Shown piece by piece: positions 7,222-23,388 of a stretch of 32,000 nucleotides of DNA. Origin of the DNA: Candidatus Syntropharchaeum caldarium (lineage in GTDB: Archaea > Halobacteriota > Syntropharchaeia > Syntropharchaeales > Syntropharchaeaceae); assembly GCA_001766815.1 (NCBI GenBank), contig LYOS01000002.1, positions 294,577-326,576 of the forward strand. The letters are read 5' to 3'. Both the position numbers and the translations under genes were made by a program. Under the pieces are notes generated by a model. That model ran no database searches, had not been told where the DNA came from, and saw only the letters and a list, made by a program, of their open reading frames with translations. Positions within the stretch are counted from its first letter, which is position 1; each line of letters begins with the position of its first letter.

Positions 7222-7758
7222 TTGGTGGCAGCCGTGGCGAAACGAAATAATTTCCCGATATTTTTGGCTTTAACATGCACATACGCGCTATTCATCTTCT
7301 TCCTGTCTTCTCTATCCTCGCCACCAACCCCATCAAATGTGGGTTTCTTCATCGAGCTTGTGAAGGAAGTTATGAACTTGCTTGAAGGTCTCGGGCTTGA
7401 GTTTCTCCTCTATCCTTTTTATGCTGTATATCTGTATCCAGACAAGTTCATGCATGCTCTTCTATACATGGGCTTTGGTCTTCTATTGAATATGACCTTT
7501 CGGAATGCGAAGAATGCGGATTTGAGCAGGTACCCTGCTTTTGCTGCAGTTATAATCGGTACATTTTATGCTCTCACGGATGAGTTTCATCAGTCTTTTG
7601 TACCGTATCGCAACCCGAGCCTGACGGATCTTCTTGCAGATTTTACTGGTTTGGTACTTGCTCAACTTCTCATTCTCGTTTATCCTGGCATCCTGAAGCT
7701 GTTAAGCAAGAAAGGCAGGAAGAGGAGAAACAGTATAACCACCAGAAGGTATAAATAA
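7222..7758 (+). CDS. VanZ-like integral membrane protein
   Basis: 178 aa with about 4 TM segments. DKFMHALLYMGFGLLL and TDEFHQSFVPYRNPSLTDLLADFTGLVLA match the VanZ-like family signature. The ORF-track start is a TTG, so the exact start is uncertain. Confidence 0.65.
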   Translation: MVAAVAKRNNFPIFLALTCTYALFIFFLSSLSSPPTPSNVGFFIELVKEVMNLLEGLGLEFLLYPFYAVYLYPDKFMHALLYMGFGLLLNMTFRNAKNADLSRYPAFAAVIIGTFYALTDEFHQSFVPYRNPSLTDLLADFTGLVLAQLLILVYPGILKLLSKKGRKRRNSITTRRYK

Positions 7759-10700: not shown

Positions 10701-12428
10701 GCAAATATAGAAAATAACGAAGGTGAAACGATCAATTACATTCTCCAGGTTAAGCTCAACGATATATTGTTGAATAGCAAGAATGTGACCCTTGAGGATG
10801 GATCTAAATGGGAAGGAAAGATAACATTCACGCCAAATCAGATCGGTTCACTTTATAAATTGGAGTTTCTCCTATTCAAAGATGAGGTGAAAGAGGAACC
10901 TTACAAGAAGTTTACACTCTGGGTTTCATCAGATATCGACTATGATAACCTGGATCTTCTCGAAGAATATGACGTCTCACCACTTCCAGCACTCGTAAAT
11001 GGAGATATGGAATCTGGAGCATCTGATGGCTGGACGTACACCGAGCACGGCGCCAACTTCACAGGAGAAATAACCGATTCAACGATGGTCTCACCGATGC
11101 ACTCTTATGAGATCGGTCATAACGAGACACATGTTGGAGAGGGTGAGTACGCTGATATAACCCAGAACTTTACATCCGAGATCTATCCAGCCACCGTGGT
11201 AATATCATTCAACGTCAGAGATTCATACACTGCAAAGGAGGATGGTTACTTCCTGAAACAGGTTCTCCTGAATGATGAGCTGATCTGGGAAGAGGATGTT
11301 GCAGGCGATGAGGGGTGGCAGTACAAGAAGATCCCTGTACAGCTCGATGCTGGTGAAAACAGGCTTACATTGCGGCTTCTTGCTGTAAAAGCGAGTGACA
11401 ATTTCCCGATCAAACTCTGGTGGGACGATGTTAAGATAGAGCCTGTAACAGCCCTCAGAGAGGAAGCCCCCCTAACTTTCTCGATACTCGATGCAGAAGG
11501 GACAGATAAGAACTACCCAACCCAGTTACACCTTGGAGAGCCTGCAAATTTCATCAGCAAAGTCGATGTCAATGAGCGAGGGCAGATCAAATATATCTTA
11601 CAGATAAAACTTGATGGCAGGGTGCTTGAAGAGAGGAGCAGATGGCTTGAAAAGGGTATGAGATGGGAAGAAAATATATCGATTGTACCGGATCAAATAG
11701 GGGATGGACAGCAGCTTGAGTTTATGCTCTTTAGAGGGGTGGTAGAAGGTACACCATACAGGTACTTCCATCTTACAGTCTCAACAGATCTAAACTATGA
11801 TAGGATAGAGCCGCTTTTAAGATACGGGATAACTCCTCTTCCAATCCTCGATGGTGGAACGATGCAGCATATCTCAGCATGGAGCTCAAATTTTAACGGT
11901 AGTTTCAGGGGCTTTCTATCATGTGAGAACGCATCCTCACCACTATCCTATTGCATTGAGCAGAACGGCGCATCCAATAAAGGAGATTTTGGTGAGATCT
12001 GGCAGAATATAAGTGCTTCATCGGATGGTGTTGCGGTTTTATCCTTCAATGTACGGGACTCATACACCACAACATCAAGCAGTGCGAAGAACCTGACCAA
12101 AGAAGTTATCCTGAACAATAAAATCATCTGGTCAGACGATATTGCTGGCAGTGATTCAGGATATACAGGATGGGTTGTAGAGGAATACACATGGTTTGAT
12201 GATGAATGGTCGATAAAGGAAGTTCCAGCCGTTAAATCTGGATGGAGACACGTTGATGTTCCTGTGTATCTCAACCATGGTGAGAACAACCTGCGACTGG
12301 GTGTATATGCACGAGATCCTGCTGATGGACTTGCTGTCAGGACGTACTGGGACGATGTTGAGATAAAGCAGATTAGCGATCTGGTTAAGACCGGTGATAA
12401 TATCAGGATGAAACGGTATGGATGGTGA
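7791..12428 (+). CDS. Giant N-terminally membrane-anchored surface protein (DUF1616-type N-terminus; 3 x [Ig-like + CBM4/9-like] units; 5 CarboxypepD_reg-like repeats)
   Basis: The ORF is continuous from 7764 (GTG). GTG 7791 is preferred because GAGG lies 7 nt upstream. Five N-terminal TM helices are followed by a large repetitive beta-rich ectodomain. I counted 29 N-X-S/T sequons by hand. There is no C-terminal anchor. Confidence 0.85.
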   Translation: MKGSTRILFFDLLIVLLFTFLAYLFVLIPPFNQTSLRIIFALPILLFLPGYLLIAAIFPRREELSGIERFTLSIGLSIAIFVFDGFAISVTQWRFRPTSIIYSLSLIILILTLITLLVRLRIPEDRRFYLDLSIFSGFIESLRSDERPSDIEKALIIALAGSIIIASGMLVYAKLTFEEEKFTMLYILGAGGKAEDYPSVVYLLEPSSITVGIENYEHAPANYTLQVKLGGYLLKEENLSLSHGEKWVNKVYFTPKHVGKHLKLEFVLYKDGSMIPYRSVHLWVDSLIDYGNLTRVREYALSDLPVVDNPDMEADSGWIFTKNIGYFRGHFTKFYQLEENATLCGYVTDNVTSKGIAYARVSINNHYGYVKTTTTNSSGYYEIPTIADHFWIVSTANGYRESATEFDISPGKRLVVNMSNDPQPIAQFNMTLEELSIINETIDTLPPDEVPEWILTLDGYVIDDVTRLPIANASVKVTIEDIFEKVLVTDRSGHFELKAIPGSATISVDAAGYSEKTTSFTISDDSTIDLRLEPANTTPPPSSMMILPIVRAGEEGNRPASGLPPWVSIIKGYAIDNVTCLPIPDASIKIRNDYGFERYTTTDKNGYFEQKVITGRSWVEAEADGYMKSSTRHDISGEYITDLRLTPESVTIQGYIHDNTTGAPISNAHVRLKCDGYSSYTRTNTSGYYEIKTIAGLIRLEVTKTGYFTNETEIEIPYGEIQIVNMTIERTPPPATVSGYVYYNHTALAGVMVLLTDHKGYEETTVTDRNGYFETEILPGHIYLQVLPSAYMTSSVEFDVGSGESVILREIELDALPESSYQIDYPSKTPIQKGYYGEIYQDIVSDEGLATISFKVSDSYTSNRSEGYLFKQVLLNNLVVWEDDVAEDEVWQEINVPVTLNNGTNRLALRVYAKKESNNFPLSVWWDSIRIKPFEKVTKDVATSFTILDAEGTRENYPTKLYLGKPAAVIANIENNEGETINYILQVKLNDILLNSKNVTLEDGSKWEGKITFTPNQIGSLYKLEFLLFKDEVKEEPYKKFTLWVSSDIDYDNLDLLEEYDVSPLPALVNGDMESGASDGWTYTEHGANFTGEITDSTMVSPMHSYEIGHNETHVGEGEYADITQNFTSEIYPATVVISFNVRDSYTAKEDGYFLKQVLLNDELIWEEDVAGDEGWQYKKIPVQLDAGENRLTLRLLAVKASDNFPIKLWWDDVKIEPVTALREEAPLTFSILDAEGTDKNYPTQLHLGEPANFISKVDVNERGQIKYILQIKLDGRVLEERSRWLEKGMRWEENISIVPDQIGDGQQLEFMLFRGVVEGTPYRYFHLTVSTDLNYDRIEPLLRYGITPLPILDGGTMQHISAWSSNFNGSFRGFLSCENASSPLSYCIEQNGASNKGDFGEIWQNISASSDGVAVLSFNVRDSYTTTSSSAKNLTKEVILNNKIIWSDDIAGSDSGYTGWVVEEYTWFDDEWSIKEVPAVKSGWRHVDVPVYLNHGENNLRLGVYARDPADGLAVRTYWDDVEIKQISDLVKTGDNIRMKRYGW
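8340..10589 (+). repeat. Ectodomain unit 1: Ig-like module A1 (8340-8648) plus CBM-like module B1, which is split (8649-8820 and 10245-10589) by a nested repeat array
   Basis: A1 (YILGAGGKAEDYP...HLWVDS) aligns with A2 and A3. The B1 halves (PDMEADSGWIFTKN... and ...GYLFKQVLLNNLVVWEDDVAEDEVWQ...SVWWDSIRIKP) align collinearly with the uninterrupted B2 and B3. Confidence 0.8.
8821..10230 (+). repeat. Five tandem ~78-aa CarboxypepD_reg-like (PEGA/carboxypeptidase regulatory-like) domains
   Basis: The repeats lie at 8821-9048, 9159-9392, 9498-9731, 9744-9977 and 9999-10230. Each begins G-Y-[VAI]-x-D/Y-N/D-x-T and contains T-[DN]-x-[NS]-G-[YH]-[YF]-E. Pro-rich linkers (TTPPPSS, RTPPPAT) separate some of them. 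Confidence 0.8.
10617..11444 (+). repeat. Ectodomain unit 2: A2 (10617-10931) + B2 (10932-11444)
   Basis: TSFTILDAEGTRENYPTKLYLG...FTLWVSS is followed by NGDMESGASDGWTY...GYFLKQVLLNDELIWEEDVAGDEGWQ...KLWWDDVKIEP. Confidence 0.8.
11472..12371 (+). repeat. Ectodomain unit 3: A3 (11472-11786) + B3 (11787-12371)
   Basis: LTFSILDAEGTDKNYPTQLHLG...FHLTVST is followed by a B-type module ending RTYWDDVEIKQ. B3 carries an extra ~25-aa insertion (SGYTGWVVEEYTWFDDEWSIKEVPAVKS) relative to B2. Confidence 0.75.
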
Positions 12429-13450
12429 AACTTGCTATGAAAAACGCTAAGAAGCTCTTATTGCTCTGGATTGTGCTTGCAATACCGATTGTTGGGCTGG
12501 GCGGCGCTATCGGATGGATTACTGGATTTTTTCTTCATGCTCTGATTGTGATGCTTGTATTCGTCCTGCTTCTTGCCACCCTCTTCTACCTATACAGCGA
12601 CAGGATACTCCTCAGGTGGTACCATGCAGAGAAGGTGGTTGATGCTACCTCACCTCTATATGAGATCGTGCATAAGCTTGCAAAAGAAGTAGAGATCCCG
12701 GTTCCAGACGTATATATCGTGGATACGGCGATGCCGAATGCATTTGTTGTGGGTAGAAACTTTCAGCATGCATCACTGGTTGTGACCACCGGTTTAATGG
12801 AACTTCTTGAAAGTGATGAGATGGAGGCTGTGCTTGCAGATATGATTGTGCACATTAAAGAAGGAGATCTACTCACTGAAACGGAAATCGGAGCATTGGC
12901 TGGAATTTTAACTGCGCTGCCGATTATTGCCTTCTGGTGCTCGATCTTCACAGGATTTGGACAGGAGGATGATCCTGCACCGAACCTGATTAAATTCTTT
13001 GTAACCTCCCTCTTTGCACCGATAGCAGCAACGATTGTCCAGTTCGGGATCGCGGGTTCACGGCAGAAATACAGTGGGAATGCACCTGAAAAAAAGATCA
13101 AAGAAAAGCTGACGTCAGAGGAATTTTATGTAAATCCATCACATGCACACCTTTTGATCGTGAGCCCACCCTATCAGGATAATCAGGTTATACTGGACCT
13201 CAACCTTCCCACATATCATTCACTCTTTCAGAGGGTGAAACGTGAGAAATTCAACCTTAGAAGGCATCTCTTCTTCAGTTCCCTCTCGTATCTTTTTGTG
13301 CTCTTTATGATAATTGTGATCTATACATTCAGCAGAAAGGACTTTGACTTTCTCCACTCTGCTGCCATCTCAGCGGTTTATCTGAGTGCAGTTCTCATCT
13401 TTTATGCGATTATGTTGAAAATATTCAGGACTAATGCCAGGACCGCTTAA
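12422..13450 (+). CDS. M48/HtpX-like membrane protein with degenerate (probably inactive) metalloprotease motifs
   Basis: It has HtpX-like topology and conserved blocks (VPDVYIVDTAMPNAFVVGRN...ASLVVTTGLMELLESDEMEAVLA). The HExxH position reads D-M-I-V-H (12839-12853), and the distal SR-E-Y-x-AD block reads SRQKYSGN. The start is ATG 12422, overlapping the upstream stop as ATGGTGA, or ATG 12437. Confidence 0.7.
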   Translation: MVKLAMKNAKKLLLLWIVLAIPIVGLGGAIGWITGFFLHALIVMLVFVLLLATLFYLYSDRILLRWYHAEKVVDATSPLYEIVHKLAKEVEIPVPDVYIVDTAMPNAFVVGRNFQHASLVVTTGLMELLESDEMEAVLADMIVHIKEGDLLTETEIGALAGILTALPIIAFWCSIFTGFGQEDDPAPNLIKFFVTSLFAPIAATIVQFGIAGSRQKYSGNAPEKKIKEKLTSEEFYVNPSHAHLLIVSPPYQDNQVILDLNLPTYHSLFQRVKREKFNLRRHLFFSSLSYLFVLFMIIVIYTFSRKDFDFLHSAAISAVYLSAVLIFYAIMLKIFRTNARTA

Positions 13451-14276
13451 CATCTGCCATCTTGTTCAATATATACAGGAGAATTGCCACAACAATCACG
13501 AATACGATCCACCCAAGATGGACATGAACCATATACATTACCTCTTTACCATAGAAGAAGGCTGCAAGACAGATTGCTGTAACACGCATGAGATTTGCGA
13601 AATATGCAACGATGACCGTTATTCCAAGCAGCGAATAGAACTTATGCCGCTCTATCTGCTCTATCTTCATATATCCCACCATTATCCCAACCAGGAGAAA
13701 CATTGAGTACAGTCCTGAACAGGGTCCTCCGATTACGACGTTCATCTCTTCCACACCAGGAATATGAACTGTCTCGGTGGCGAGCACTTCAACAGGAATC
13801 CCTATCACGTTGAGTATTTTGACCATGGGAAGCAGAACAAAATAATGGTCAAAGATGTGCATGAATGCGATATCGAGCCTGCCAAAGATGATGAATAAAG
13901 GTATAAAGAGTAGAAGGAAGGTGGTAGACATGTACGTGCCAAACGCCCCCATCCTGCTTATCTCCTCGTTCTTTATGTCATAGGCAACAAGCGAGATGCC
14001 GAGCATGAAGGTCATAATATCCAGTGTACCGAGACTGCTCTGGGTCAGGATATTGTACGCAATGTCTGCTACAAGAATCAGGACGCCCAGTAGCATGTGT
14101 AATCTGGATTCAGGAACAATATGTGATTTACCCACCTTTATCCTTGAAATAAGTGCAAGAGCAATCAAAAGGAGAAAAATTCCGAGTGGGATGGAACCCT
14201 CGCTGATCTCAACGGTTGCACCCAGAAATAGTGCAAATATGAACAGAAACAGGATGATATTTTTAAAGTTTGTCAT
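13431..14276 (-). CDS. artC: Archaeosortase (exosortase/archaeosortase family); assigned to the PEF-CTERM-specific type (ArtC) from the adjacent cargo
   Basis: 281 aa, polytopic. The family triad is in canonical order and context: Cys186 in IGGPCSGLYSM (13719-13721), Arg231 in ANLMRVTAI, and His in HVHLGWIVF. Two PEF-CTERM genes lie immediately divergent. Confidence 0.8.
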   Translation of the reverse strand: MTNFKNIILFLFIFALFLGATVEISEGSIPLGIFLLLIALALISRIKVGKSHIVPESRLHMLLGVLILVADIAYNILTQSSLGTLDIMTFMLGISLVAYDIKNEEISRMGAFGTYMSTTFLLLFIPLFIIFGRLDIAFMHIFDHYFVLLPMVKILNVIGIPVEVLATETVHIPGVEEMNVVIGGPCSGLYSMFLLVGIMVGYMKIEQIERHKFYSLLGITVIVAYFANLMRVTAICLAAFFYGKEVMYMVHVHLGWIVFVIVVAILLYILNKMADVKRSWH

Positions 14277-14596: not shown

Positions 14597-15148
14597 ATGA
14601 AAATCGAAAAAACAACAATTGTGTTTGTGATAAGTATAGCATTGCTTACGGTGATGGCAGGGACAGCGATGGCAATGCCGGCTACAGTAAATATAGCAGA
14701 CAATCCGATAATCAATCCGCTGGATGGCACTACAGTGACAACTCATACGGTGACCGTATCTGATATAGATTATGGAAACCTGGGTAATCCACAGACACGA
14801 TATATAAGCGTTATTACGGATGATCCAAATCTTCAGGTGAAGATCACAGGCAATGACGTTGATACAGGCTGGACAAGTACCACCAGAGCAGGAGGCACAT
14901 ACACTGCAAGTGGAGGAAGTGATTACACCTTTACACTCTATGTAAAAGGATCTGCAAGTGCAGATGGGAGCCACGTAACAGTATCTGACAACGAAGGAAC
15001 CAGTTATGATCCCGATGCATCAGCCGATTGCGCATCAGCTACAAGACCGGTCAATATCCCAGAGTTCGCGACAATAGCACTACCACTTGCTGCAACAATC
15101 GGGCTGTTCATCTACTTTGACAGCAGACGCAAGCGTGAAGAAGAGTGA
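14597..15148 (+). CDS. Secreted PEF-CTERM sorting-signal protein 1 (small beta-rich domain of unknown function)
   Basis: An AGGAGGT Shine-Dalgarno sequence at 14581-14587 lies 9 nt upstream of the ATG. The signal peptide is MKIEKTTIVFVISIALLTVMAGTAMA. The C-terminus PEF-ATIALPLAATIGLFIYF-DSRRKREEE has the motif + TM helix + basic tail layout. Confidence 0.85.
   Translation: MKIEKTTIVFVISIALLTVMAGTAMAMPATVNIADNPIINPLDGTTVTTHTVTVSDIDYGNLGNPQTRYISVITDDPNLQVKITGNDVDTGWTSTTRAGGTYTASGGSDYTFTLYVKGSASADGSHVTVSDNEGTSYDPDASADCASATRPVNIPEFATIALPLAATIGLFIYFDSRRKREEE
15059..15145 (+). other. PEF-CTERM sorting signal of cargo 1
   Basis: It is tripartite: a P-E-F motif, a 17-residue hydrophobic helix, and an RRKR-containing tail at the extreme C-terminus. 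Confidence 0.8.
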
Positions 15149-15206: not shown

Positions 15207-16022
15207 ATGAAAAAGACAAAAACAGCAATGGTACTTGTGGTGAGTATAGCGTTGCTTACGGTGATGACAGGGACAGCGATGGCAGCATACACGATTGACG
15301 GTGATCTCGATGATTGGGGTGTCCATCCCCCTGGCAGCTGGTACGCCAGCTCTCCTGCCAAAAGTGCAGTTGAGAACTGGGGCGATGGTCCCAATTCCGA
15401 TAGTATCAGTCCAGGTATAGAGGAATGCGATATCGAAGCGATGTACGTGGATGAAGATGTAAGTGGTCCGTATATTTATATAGCGATCATCACATCGATG
15501 CCACCAGAAGGTGTTGATTATGCCTGTGGCAGTGGTTCAATTCACCTTATATCTGGAGATCTTGCACTGGACTTCGACAACGATGGTATCTATGAGTATG
15601 GTGTAAAACTGACAGATGATAGTAGAACTGTGCCAGGTGATATAGGAGATGTATTCAGTAATCCAACGTGGGTTAAGATCACCACGCACTGCGCCCAGTC
15701 GCAGTTAGCCTTCAGTAACATCGATAGTGGTACAAAGACGGGACATGCAACGATCGTTTACACAAACTACGCAGACTGGTCATGGGATAACGGTGCAGCC
15801 AACTATGTTATCGAGATGAAGATTCCAAAGTCAGCACTTGGAATCTCCACAGAGGGCGAAGTTGACCTCTGCGCCACGGTGAGCTGTACAAACGACGTGA
15901 TAACGATCAAAGACTTTCACTACACTGAAATACCAGAATTCGCGACAATAGCACTACCACTTGCTGCAACAATCGGGCTGTTCATCTACTTTGACAATAG
16001 ACGCAAGCGCGAAGAAGAGTAA
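15207..16022 (+). CDS. Secreted PEF-CTERM sorting-signal protein 2 (mature domain begins AYTIDGDLDDWG, a CBM9/DOMON-like start motif; function unknown)
   Basis: A GGAGGTGA Shine-Dalgarno sequence at 15196-15203 precedes the start. The signal peptide is MKKTKTAMVLVVSIALLTVMTGTAMA. The C-terminus is PEF-ATIALPLAATIGLFIYF-DNRRKREEE. Confidence 0.85.
   Translation: MKKTKTAMVLVVSIALLTVMTGTAMAAYTIDGDLDDWGVHPPGSWYASSPAKSAVENWGDGPNSDSISPGIEECDIEAMYVDEDVSGPYIYIAIITSMPPEGVDYACGSGSIHLISGDLALDFDNDGIYEYGVKLTDDSRTVPGDIGDVFSNPTWVKITTHCAQSQLAFSNIDSGTKTGHATIVYTNYADWSWDNGAANYVIEMKIPKSALGISTEGEVDLCATVSCTNDVITIKDFHYTEIPEFATIALPLAATIGLFIYFDNRRKREEE
15933..16019 (+). other. PEF-CTERM sorting signal of cargo 2
   Basis: The tripartite tail is the same as in cargo 1. 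By my manual alignment, the DNA differs from 15059-15148 at only 5 of 90 positions. Confidence 0.8.
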
Positions 16023-16179: not shown

Positions 16180-16827
16180 ATGCGATCCTCTTTTTCACCG
16201 GGATCTACCATCGATTTGGGCTATGCCAGCGGTTATTTAGCGGCAGGTGGTGCAGGTATCACAGGTGATGGTGTGAGGTTGATTAACATATCGTACATAC
16301 TGCTTATCATATTGTTCGCAGGGATCACACTCAGTGGAGGATGTCTCCAAAAGGATATAAAGACAGAGGAGATAGAAAAGTTCGAGGTGGGTGATATGAG
16401 ACTTACAAGTACCGTCTTTGATTATGGTGGCAGGATACCGCAGAAGTACACATGCGATGGAGAGGACATAAATCCGCCGCTTGTGATTGAGGATGTTCCA
16501 GCAGATGCAAAAACACTGGTTTTGATTGTTGATGACCCGGATGCACCGATGGGCACATGGGATCACTGGATTGTCTGGAATATACCAGTGATTGACAGGA
16601 TCGAAGAAGATAGTGTTCCAGGTACAGTGGGTGTGAATTCATGGGGAAGAAATGACTACGGTGGGCCATGTCCGCCATCCGGGGAACACAGGTACTTCTT
16701 CAAGCTATATGCACTGGATACAACGCTGAATCTTGATACAAACTCGACGAAAAAGGATCTTGAACGGGCGATGGAAGGGCATGTCATCGCACAGACCGAT
16801 CTGATCGGAGTATACTCAAGAGCGTAA
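16180..16827 (+). CDS. PEBP-family protein (YbhB/YbcL, Raf-kinase-inhibitor-like) with N-terminal hydrophobic signal and lipobox-like Cys
   Basis: It contains YTCDGEDINPPL, DDPDAP, WDHWIVWNIP and GPCPPSGEHRYFFKLYALD. The N-terminus ISYILLIILFAGITLSGGC puts the Cys at 16342-16344. The true start may be GTG 16273 or TTG 16279, behind a GGTGAT Shine-Dalgarno at 16264-16269, rather than ATG 16180. Confidence 0.8.
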   Translation: MRSSFSPGSTIDLGYASGYLAAGGAGITGDGVRLINISYILLIILFAGITLSGGCLQKDIKTEEIEKFEVGDMRLTSTVFDYGGRIPQKYTCDGEDINPPLVIEDVPADAKTLVLIVDDPDAPMGTWDHWIVWNIPVIDRIEEDSVPGTVGVNSWGRNDYGGPCPPSGEHRYFFKLYALDTTLNLDTNSTKKDLERAMEGHVIAQTDLIGVYSRA

Positions 16828-21843: not shown

Positions 21844-23388
21844 TCAGGAATTTCTGGCTGGTGTCACATCCAGAAAGTAAACATCCCCTTTCCTGACGCC
21901 ATCGAGTATCTCAAGCCCTGAAACCACCCTTCCAATGACGTTTGTCGAGGCTGCAATCTCACCTGTCGGACCAAATACTGGGTCGTCAATGAGCCGTATC
22001 CCGATCGTGCCTTCATGGGGCCTGCTCATGTTTGTAACACCGATCACCCCACGTTCAAACCCCACATCCTCGGCAGGTGTGTTCTCGGGCTTGATCATCA
22101 CACGCCGATCGCCACCCCTGAAGAGTATGAGTGATTCGATTGCACCGGTAACCACGAGTTTTCCAACACGATGATTTCGGTAGAGGCCCGTAACGTCCTT
22201 GAAATAATGAACAGTCTCAGGAGCCTCCTCCTCAAACAACTCCACACGCAGCAGATTATCAGGTGCGATCGCTTCGGTTTCGACCTTTCCCTGCTTAAAT
22301 ATCTCGATAGTCATATCTGGCTGCTGTGAGACGATGATCGCATCATCCGCCTCTTCACCCTTTCTAATATGTGTGATACCGATCTCTTCGAGGAGTTTTT
22401 CTGCTTCATACTGGCTCATACCAACGAGAAATACCTGTACAGGATTTGTATGAACCGCTATCTTATCTCCAAGCCTTGCAACATCAATGAGTTCGATCCC
22501 TGACCTGACCGTGCCAAAGGCGTTCATGTAGTGCTGGGGCATCCTGAGCTTTTTGTAGAAGTAGATCGAGTTTTTCCGATCGCCATCGTTCCTGAGAAAC
22601 GCCATTCCCCGATCTCGGAATGTGCGATTGTTCTCAACACCTATCTCAAATATCGGTGGACTCACCGAGCGAATGTAACTGTTCGAGACCTCATCCACCG
22701 TTAAAAATCCGTTATTATTCCTTAAATATGCCAGGAATGACTCTGCAGAGCAGGGTGCCATCTCTGATAGCTCAAGAGCGATCGATGTATAGATCTCCAT
22801 GCCATCCTCGACGACATCGGTTAAGGAGAGCCTGTCAAGAAGTGACTCAATCGCATATTCGGGTGCAATCTCCTTTATGACATCATCGATCACAAGATCC
22901 TGCAAAATTGTTCTGCCGCCACCTATCACCCGCCCGATCACTGCATCATCTGGATCTGGTGGGAGAAATAGTCGATCCTCGTGTTCAGTGCGTGCAATAC
23001 CGAGATAAGTCTCAGGGTCACCTGAGCCGATTCTAAAAAGGAAAATATCTCCGCGTTTGAGCCTGATTGAAGCTGCCGAGTACTTTGTGTCACTATCCAG
23101 CCTCACGGGTGAGAAGATCACAGCATTTTTTCCAATGATCTCAACCTTTTTTCCGATCCAGGCCTCATATATTGGATGCCATTTTTCCCGCATTCTCGCC
23201 TGGAACTTACCCTTCGTTGTTGTGAATGTGTATTTATCTGTGCGGGCTTCTATCTCTCCTTTACGCTCAACCACAAGCATATCGGGATCAAATATCGGCT
23301 CGAACTTCTCAACAAGCGATTTTACAGTTGTAACTCGATCAAGTTCTTCTTCTGAGATTATAGTACCGTTGAGCTTTATACTACGCAT
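21844..23388 (-). CDS. Probable methanogenesis marker protein 3 (UPF0288 family) with cyclophilin-like C-terminal region
   Basis: 514 aa. Its length and N-terminus (MRSIKLNGTIISEEEL) fit my recollection of the family. There are two cyclophilin-like G-rich blocks (VIGRVIGGGRTILQDL and NVIGRVVSGLEILDGV). The assignment is from memory and unverified. Confidence 0.5.
   Translation of the reverse strand: MRSIKLNGTIISEEELDRVTTVKSLVEKFEPIFDPDMLVVERKGEIEARTDKYTFTTTKGKFQARMREKWHPIYEAWIGKKVEIIGKNAVIFSPVRLDSDTKYSAASIRLKRGDIFLFRIGSGDPETYLGIARTEHEDRLFLPPDPDDAVIGRVIGGGRTILQDLVIDDVIKEIAPEYAIESLLDRLSLTDVVEDGMEIYTSIALELSEMAPCSAESFLAYLRNNNGFLTVDEVSNSYIRSVSPPIFEIGVENNRTFRDRGMAFLRNDGDRKNSIYFYKKLRMPQHYMNAFGTVRSGIELIDVARLGDKIAVHTNPVQVFLVGMSQYEAEKLLEEIGITHIRKGEEADDAIIVSQQPDMTIEIFKQGKVETEAIAPDNLLRVELFEEEAPETVHYFKDVTGLYRNHRVGKLVVTGAIESLILFRGGDRRVMIKPENTPAEDVGFERGVIGVTNMSRPHEGTIGIRLIDDPVFGPTGEIAASTNVIGRVVSGLEILDGVRKGDVYFLDVTPARNS

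Follow-up and report, generated by a model that had tools for sequence, protein, structure and literature searches.

A catalytically degenerate HtpX-like membrane protein encoded beside archaeosortase C in Candidatus Syntropharchaeum caldarium

The window analyzed here, a stretch of 32,000 nucleotides on contig LYOS01000002.1 of Candidatus Syntropharchaeum caldarium, encodes a membrane protein of 342 amino acids (aa) that keeps the fold of the M48 peptidase HtpX and lacks three of the four catalytic and zinc-binding residues as well as two active-site helices, the one carrying the third zinc ligand and the one carrying a C-terminal THP motif. Its gene is under purifying selection after the catalytic loss and shares its 3′ end with a convergent gene for archaeosortase C (ArtC). 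We propose, with a probability of about 0.55, that this inactive member of an HtpX-like subfamily is a non-proteolytic accessory subunit of the machinery that sorts PEF-CTERM surface proteins by means of ArtC.

The Pfam profile Peptidase_M48 (PF01435) matched the protein at 53.2 bits against a gathering cutoff of 20.3, covering residues 79–215 only (profile positions 7–138 of 186). Eight NCBIfam HtpX equivalog models, whose cutoffs span 245–422 bits, also matched far below these values, the best at 148.8 bits for a model with a cutoff of 369, and their matches likewise stop by residue 215. Release 20 of NCBIfam contains no dedicated model for the protein, which drew only these sub-cutoff HtpX matches. 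In a HMMER alignment to the solved HtpX domain 3cqb, the segment AVLADMIVHI falls on AVLAHEVSHI, and in the family alignments G-S-R-Q-K-Y lies under S-R-E-Y-x-A-D. Both comparisons together give the substitutions H140D, E141M and E215Q, with H144 retained. In the family alignments the C-terminal THPxxxxR motif is deleted as well, and about 14 residues that follow the SRE block are missing too. Direct inspection of the sequence revealed no second HExxH and no alternative metal motif within the protein; its sole other histidine-rich element is the family-wide NPSHAH (NPxHxH), which includes His241.

An earlier sequence-only reading of this DNA had described an HtpX scaffold with D-M-I-V-H in place of HExxH and a Glu-to-Gln exchange in the third-ligand block, and had concluded that the protein is a likely pseudoprotease. 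Its column assignments hold against the M48 profile, the HtpX structure and the family alignments, the scaffold is supported by profile score and predicted fold alike, and its conclusion agrees with the loss of the catalytic residues in a protein whose fold and selective constraint persist. The deletion of THPxxxxR is absent from that description. The two gene overlaps it reported were also read as claimed: ATGGTGA at 12422–12428 joins the ATG of the M48-like gene (12422–12424) to the TGA (12426–12428) of a 1554-aa gene of the DUF1616 family, and the last 20 nucleotides of the M48-like gene (13431..13450) are shared with the 3′ end of the ArtC gene.

Structure prediction with AlphaFold, for which an alignment of 121 sequences served as input, yielded a metal-free model with a predicted local distance difference test score (pLDDT) of 89.4 and a predicted template modelling score of 0.86. 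The model consists of six transmembrane (TM) helices and a beta-alpha core. The helices span residues 2–34, 37–66, 150–176, 185–209, 279–305 and 310–341, in agreement with hydropathy. The best Foldseek match was 3cqb (root-mean-square deviation 1.3–1.8 Å), followed by Ste24/ZMPSTE24, a Geobacter M48 peptidase, BepA and BlaR1, which confirms an M48 fold with the four-TM topology of HtpX. The intact orthologue of Ca. Argoarchaeum (P0012) was modelled equally well (pLDDT 89.9) and shows, after TM4, a confident helix at residues 209–222 with the sequence SREYMADE and another at 287–294 with the THP motif. In place of the former, residues 210–220 of the window protein form an 11-residue non-helical loop with the lowest pLDDT of the model (58), and the latter has no counterpart. 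The protein keeps the strand segments that are conserved in the N-terminal M48 core, the part of the fold in which the substrate-binding edge strand of BepA would lie.

HtpX of E. coli has its N-terminus and its M48 domain in the cytoplasm. The charge pattern of the window protein, with no Lys or Arg and three Asp or Glu in the loop 177–188, fits this topology together with hydropathy. The protein is predicted to have its N-terminus inside and the M48 domain in the cytoplasm, with the loops 177–188 and 304–312 exposed on the outside.

Homologues with 40–57% identity are 370–390 aa long and were found in ANME-1/Methanophagales, Ca. Argoarchaeum and other Methanosarcinales. Most of them are intact, with HELxH, SREYxADE and THPATxxR in place. 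Between TM3 and TM4 the family carries a near-invariant loop, GFGQ[ED][ED]DPAP, which is absent from classical HtpX. In an alignment of 29 sequences, G178, F179, G180, D184, P185, A186 and P187 of this loop were invariant. Individual family members vary at Q181, E182 and D183. Degenerate members, which retain the third-ligand Glu in only 14% of cases, preserve W172, G178, F179, G180, D184 and P187 throughout (100%) and Q181, P185 and A186 in 81–95%; intact members show at least 90% conservation at all eight of these loop positions. The gene belongs to a distinct and apparently undescribed HtpX-like subfamily.

Loss of the catalytic motif recurs within this subfamily. A scan of GTDB species representatives identified 31 loci, including ones from Archaeoglobi and from the cultured Methanolobus vulcani, M. 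bombayensis and M. halotolerans, and HExxH is absent in 14 of the 31 (about 13 of them secure, as locus L042 runs off its contig). The same holds for 14 of the 52 loci that could be assessed in a search anchored on ArtC. Over the family, the share of members without HExxH is put at about a quarter to a third. The replacement motifs are diverse, namely DMIVH, DEIVH, YELTH, HELVL, HELIR, HELIQ, YEMSR, YGMSH, FQLLH, NQFVH, RExxR (in Methanolobus), LEVTK or LEVSK, CEAAK, HDLVQ, HNIVQ and YNLVQ, and no alternative motif is conserved among the degenerate members. In a neighbour-joining tree they fall into at least six separate clades, a count that is approximate because the tree carries no bootstrap support, and the clade of the window protein and the orthologue P0002 is sister to the intact Argoarchaeum protein. 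Public sources label members of the family "heat shock protein HtpX", "Protease HtpX" or "zinc metalloprotease", even where HExxH is missing.

Two orthologues from independent assemblies, P0001 (98% identical) and P0002 (73–75% identical), have intact reading frames and the same neighbours. P0001 reads DMIVH like the window protein. P0002 reads D-E-I-V-H, with the catalytic Glu kept, and shares both H140D and the two deletions, which are therefore older than the split of the two lineages; E141M arose later, in the lineage of the window. Both DMIVH and the deletions recur in copies with 98% identity from other assemblies, which rules out a sequencing or assembly artefact. The ratio of non-synonymous to synonymous substitution rates (dN/dS) between the window and the P0002 lineage, at a dS of ~0.5, was 0.28 for the whole gene and ranged from 0.13 to 0.40 in its sub-regions (Table 1). 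The gene is hence under purifying selection after catalytic loss, and no frameshift decay was seen in the orthologues. An antisense open reading frame (ORF) at 12763..13101 (−) was considered as a gene and found unsupported, given the codon-level purifying selection in the plus-strand frame.

The placement of the losses was assessed in the 35 columns for which the 50 family members with intact HExxH show a conservation of at least 90%. The window protein keeps 27 of these. Six of the eight columns lost belong to the catalytic signatures (H140D, E141M, E215Q, A218S, D219G and the Pro of THP; Fisher P = 4.3e-4), and the remaining two are conservative changes (I to L and A to G). This concentration in catalytic columns is the pattern of a pseudoenzyme and not that of a decaying gene.

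The C-terminal residues 271–342 form a 2-TM module which in the family is either fused to the M48-like protein or encoded immediately downstream as a mini-protein. The sequence-only reading had noted a C-terminal extension of about 100 aa with two TM helices; the helices stand, and the length is corrected to ~72 aa. The module has the consensus LFFSxxSYLxVLFxIIVxDTFxRKDFxF. With residues 271–342 as query, tblastn detected it in every locus of the family, fused in 15 of 31 and as a separate ORF of 71–110 aa in the other 16 (L022–L026, L029 and L033–L041 have such a small ORF, for instance L023 4465..4692 and L039 10909..11151). In many cases the start of the separate ORF overlaps with the stop of the M48-like gene before it, and some Methanolobus loci have TTG as its start codon. 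Since these standalone ORFs are so small, they are easily overlooked by annotation. An exhaustive phmmer search over 1.84 billion representative proteins returned 21 clusters only, nine of them C-termini of proteins of 324–471 aa and twelve standalone proteins of 58–96 aa. Pfam and NCBIfam hold no known family for the module, the one match being a sub-threshold hit to 7tm_3. Whether the module is fused or split is uncorrelated with catalytic loss, as all four combinations were seen. The pattern of fusion and fission argues that mini-protein and M48-like protein act together.

ArtC is the near-obligate genomic partner of the subfamily. In the window, a VanZ-like gene, the DUF1616 giant, the M48-like gene, the convergent ArtC gene and two genes for PEF-CTERM proteins follow one another, and the same cassette, including the convergent overlap of 20 nucleotides, is present in Argoarchaeum and in the P0002 lineage. 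The convergent pair of M48-like gene and ArtC extends to ANME-1, Archaeoglobi and cultured Methanolobus, and almost all loci that are long enough have it. A metagenome search that started from ArtC found the M48-like gene in 47 of the 51 loci whose downstream DNA was at least 1.3 kb long, usually at a distance of 2–600 bp. Cys186, Arg231 and His253 of ArtC are invariant throughout the compared loci, including lineages in which the M48-like gene is dead, and the cassettes of lineages with intact and with dead M48-like genes alike encode PEF-CTERM proteins. ArtC and its substrates being maintained beside dead M48-like genes, the cutting step seems to be dispensable, and we infer that the conserved role of the family is independent of peptide-bond cleavage.

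For the window protein, a substrate-binding or scaffold role can reasonably be inferred. The M48-like protein might hold or position a membrane client, and our guess would be a PEF-CTERM precursor, held by its C-terminal TM helix and its basic tail, or ArtC itself. On the cytoplasmic side the client may be bound by the retained M48 cleft, and on the outer side by the conserved loops. Those relatives whose HExxH is intact would probably also cleave, for example the anchor peptide left after ArtC has acted, or stalled precursors. This cutting step would then have become dispensable in the lineage of the window and in several others.

Several points weigh against this proposal. The link to ArtC, the PEF-CTERM proteins and the DUF1616 giant is one of gene adjacency, and the predicted placement of the M48 domain in the cytoplasm draws on the positive-inside pattern and on the known topology of HtpX from E. 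coli. Asp140, His144 and His241 are still present, so that some metal binding is possible. The locus counts include near-duplicate metagenome contigs, which are not phylogenetically independent, and the ArtC search used patterns taken from ArtCs whose link to M48 was already known. The degenerate relatives at L005/L019 (ANME-1 G60) and L027, which read YELTH and HELIR, have no adjoining archaeosortase gene, and the neighbours at L005 are genes for ribosomal proteins. Conversely, four of the 51 ArtC loci are without an M48-like gene; no such gene lies inside the available flank of ArtC at L054–L057, L081, L088 and L116, of which L054–L057 are one lineage whose ArtC is 61–62% identical to that of the window. 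With L019, L027 and the four ArtC loci as exceptions, the pairing is not absolute.

The sequence-only reading had coupled the M48-like protein to the giant surface protein instead. The giant is a frequent neighbour: of the 36 ArtC-anchored loci whose flank reaches 4 kb or more, 28 have DUF1616 near the pair, as do most GTDB loci, and the start of the M48-like gene overlaps the stop of the giant not only in the window but also in L001 and Argoarchaeum. The real partner could accordingly be the giant, with the M48-like protein as its dedicated non-proteolytic insertion, assembly or quality-control factor and ArtC merely co-located. We regard this as unlikely. Several ANME-1 loci (L008, L012, L013 and L053) keep the pair of M48-like gene and ArtC without a nearby DUF1616, two further genes lie between giant and M48-like gene at L006, and the orientation of DUF1616 changes, upstream on the same strand in most loci and divergent in Methanolobus, while the convergent pairing with ArtC stays. 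The partner that stays consistent across lineages is ArtC, as seen in searches from either side. The giant of the window ends in ...IRMKRYGW and has no PEF-CTERM tail, which suggests that it is anchored N-terminally and is not a substrate of ArtC. Partnership with the giant and partnership with ArtC are compatible, and all three proteins could work in one machine. More tentatively, ArtC might be the catalytic core of a conserved multi-part machine that comprises the HtpX-like protein, the 2-TM mini-protein and usually the DUF1616 giant and VanZ, to which the HtpX-like subunit would make an essential contribution of a non-proteolytic kind. For example, that subunit might be the receptor that captures PEF-CTERM signals by their TM helix and basic tail, or the extractor of the cleaved anchor. 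If true, such an arrangement would explain why the active site was switched off at least six times while the outer loop stayed invariant.

The two remaining alternatives concern the state of the protein itself. It would still be a peptidase if Asp140, His144 and His241, or another arrangement of metal and water, formed a non-canonical site. Asp is able to bind zinc, His144 and the family-conserved His241 are retained, and the sister lineage P0002 retains the catalytic Glu. In the window protein, however, this general base is Met, the third ligand is Gln within what has become a low-confidence loop, and the THP helix is deleted. Other lineages have lost different combinations of residues, in Methanolobus even both His (RExxR), which indicates loss and not a new conserved site, and the degenerate members share no motif that could replace the old one. 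Retained peptidase activity is thus very improbable. As improbable is a recent inactivation that left a pseudogene drifting without function. Two internal deletions relative to the family, scores far under the HtpX equivalog cutoffs and a dN/dS slightly above that of the neighbours (0.28 against 0.20–0.21) would fit decay, yet three independent lineages or assemblies have an unbroken reading frame, and the dN/dS was accumulated after the shared H140D and deletions, with a value of 0.13 for TM3-loop-TM4. Moreover, the losses cluster in catalytic columns instead of being evenly spread, and dead versions persist in cultured Methanolobus species. On the strength of dN/dS and of where the losses fall, we reject a decaying pseudogene and favor the accessory subunit of ArtC-dependent sorting.

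The features of the cassette and its surroundings are listed in Table 1. The giant comprises three DUF1616-type stretches, and tblastn detected internal repeats of ~340 aa in its C-terminal two-thirds. A VanZ gene occupies the same position in Argoarchaeum, L006, L018, L025 and L026. The two PEF-CTERM proteins are encoded in tandem and nearly match each other in signal peptide and tail (PEFATIALPLAATIGLFIYFD[SN]RRKREEE), whereas their middles are unrelated; both end in PEF, a TM helix and RRKREEE. They score 13–16 bits with TIGR03024 against a cutoff of 23; being below it, they were assigned as substrates by the visible motif and by the identity of the second protein to its Argoarchaeum counterpart.

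Table 1 Features of the cassette and its neighbourhood, with dN/dS between the window and the P0002 lineage.
Feature	Position	Strand	dN/dS	Evidence and remarks
VanZ-like membrane protein heading the cassette	7222..7758	+		Pfam VanZ, NCBIfam vanZ_1
DUF1616 giant membrane/surface protein, 1554 aa	7764..12428	+	0.20 (C-terminal part)	Pfam DUF1616 326 bits, 5 CarboxypepD_reg; stop overlaps start of M48-like gene
HtpX-like (M48) pseudoprotease gene, 342 aa, with fused C-terminal 2-TM module	12422..13450	+	0.28	ORF, Pfam PF01435, AlphaFold, Foldseek, dN/dS
TM1-TM2 hairpin, residues 2–66	12425..12619	+	0.17	Helices 2–34 and 37–66; hydropathy; 4 Lys/Arg at N-terminus
N-terminal half, predicted cytoplasmic			0.29	
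Degenerate HExxH site D-M-I-V-H, residues 140–144	12839..12853	+		Aligned to HEVSH of 3cqb and HELxH of 50 intact family members
TM3-outer loop-TM4, residues 150–209	12869..13048	+	0.13	Most constrained part; 91% identity to P0002 lineage
Signature loop GFGQEDDPAPN, residues 178–188, predicted extracellular	12953..12985	+		Family alignments, charge pattern
Degenerate third-zinc-ligand block S-R-Q-K-Y-S-G, residues 213–219	13058..13078	+		Family alignments: S-R-E-Y-x-A-D
Degenerate C-terminal half			0.38	
Fused 2-TM mini-protein module, residues 271–342	13232..13450	+	0.40	tblastn, phmmer; motif YTFSRKDFDF
Archaeosortase C (ArtC)	13431..14276	−	0.21	TIGR03762 267 bits, cutoff 100; convergent partner, 20-nucleotide 3′ overlap
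PEF-CTERM protein 1, predicted ArtC substrate	14597..15148	+		Signal peptide and tail PEFATIALPLAATIGLFIYFDSRRKREEE; TIGR03024 13 bits
PEF-CTERM protein 2, predicted ArtC substrate	15207..16022	+		Tail PEFATIALPLAATIGLFIYFDNRRKREEE; 72% identical to PEF-CTERM protein of the Argoarchaeum cassette
PEBP/YbhB-family protein	16180..16827	+		~85-aa N-terminal extension; directly after PEF-CTERM genes
Mmp3, methyl-coenzyme M reductase-associated marker	21844..23388	−		TIGR03268, 357 bits

The archaeosortase ArtA requires an ethanolamine lipid (PssA/PssD), which made the PEBP/YbhB gene behind the PEF-CTERM genes a tempting candidate for a further member of the system. None of 122 related loci contained a homologue, and the gene is probably an unrelated neighbour. 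On one ANME-1 contig a gene for phosphatidylserine decarboxylase lies 9 kb from the cassette (L006 20000..20821), and in Argoarchaeum a gene for BacA, of the undecaprenyl-diphosphatase family, follows the PEF-CTERM genes (L003 9887..10678). By analogy with ArtA, both are possible lipid-anchor links to the cassette. Elsewhere the window carries Mmp3 together with trp genes, HisRS, MCM, GyrA and a truncated ribonucleotide reductase, as ordinary chromosomal DNA of a methanogen or alkane oxidiser of the Methanosarcinales, and searches of the whole window for tRNAs and Rfam families gave no match.

Among known proteins, HtpX (MEROPS M48B; E. coli and Vibrio parahaemolyticus 3cqb) is the nearest in build, with homology over residues 8–215, a closely superimposable fold and the same order of two N-terminal TM helices, soluble domain and TM3-TM4 hairpin. 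Unlike HtpX, the window protein has neither the first His and the Glu of HExxH, nor the third-ligand Glu and its helix, nor the THP motif; it has instead the GFGQEDDPAPN loop and the fused 2-TM module, and its gene is tied to that of ArtC, while HtpX is encoded on its own, as a gene of the stress response. iRhoms and Derlins are inactive rhomboids, membrane pseudoproteases under selection that are thought to bind TM clients as adaptors. They resemble the window protein in concept, as a membrane protease fold without catalytic residues that is maintained by selection, but belong to an unrelated fold and domain of life, and the HtpX-like subfamily mixes active and inactive members with recurrent loss.

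A precedent for a dead M48 fold that holds a client is the periplasmic M48 protein BepA, which acts on LptD and has a chaperone-like role besides cutting. Its protease-dead variant E137Q still binds the client via the edge strand, with greater stability than wild-type BepA, and retains partial chaperone-like function (PMC8423444). BepA differs from the window protein in being soluble, bacterial, fused to tetratricopeptide repeats and naturally competent for catalysis, and it is a remote structural match (TM-score ~0.2). In the CAAX pathway, Ste24 (M48A) acts on lipidated C-termini. The myxosortase MrtX of the CPBP family is another membrane protease fold that acts on C-termini, there on tripartite sorting signals (PMC11980579). 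As is proposed for the window protein, these systems involve a membrane-embedded metallo- or glutamic-protease fold in C-terminal sorting or processing, and Ste24/ZMPSTE24 are the structural matches next to HtpX. In them the protease itself does the sorting, whereas here a transpeptidase-type Cys enzyme, ArtC, would sort, with the M48-like protein as an additional and often inactive partner.

A literature search that did not cover the founding archaeosortase paper found no report linking HtpX or M48 to archaeosortase C. Those papers mentioning archaeosortase C that were checked merely list it, and none connects it with an M48 or HtpX protein. The finding would accordingly be new as an HtpX-family pseudoprotease within a conserved, apparently undescribed ArtC-associated module.

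To our knowledge, substrate recognition and partner proteins of exosortases and archaeosortases are largely unknown outside ArtA of Haloferax. A conserved accessory module would supply concrete candidates for experiments, and cultured Methanolobus strains carry the cassette. For annotation, the names "zinc metalloprotease HtpX" and "heat shock protein HtpX" should be dropped for genes of this kind. Within a single genomic context, the family as a whole spans membrane metalloprotease folds that are active, intermediate (DExxH) or dead, a natural series that makes it useful for asking what a protease fold does once cutting stops.

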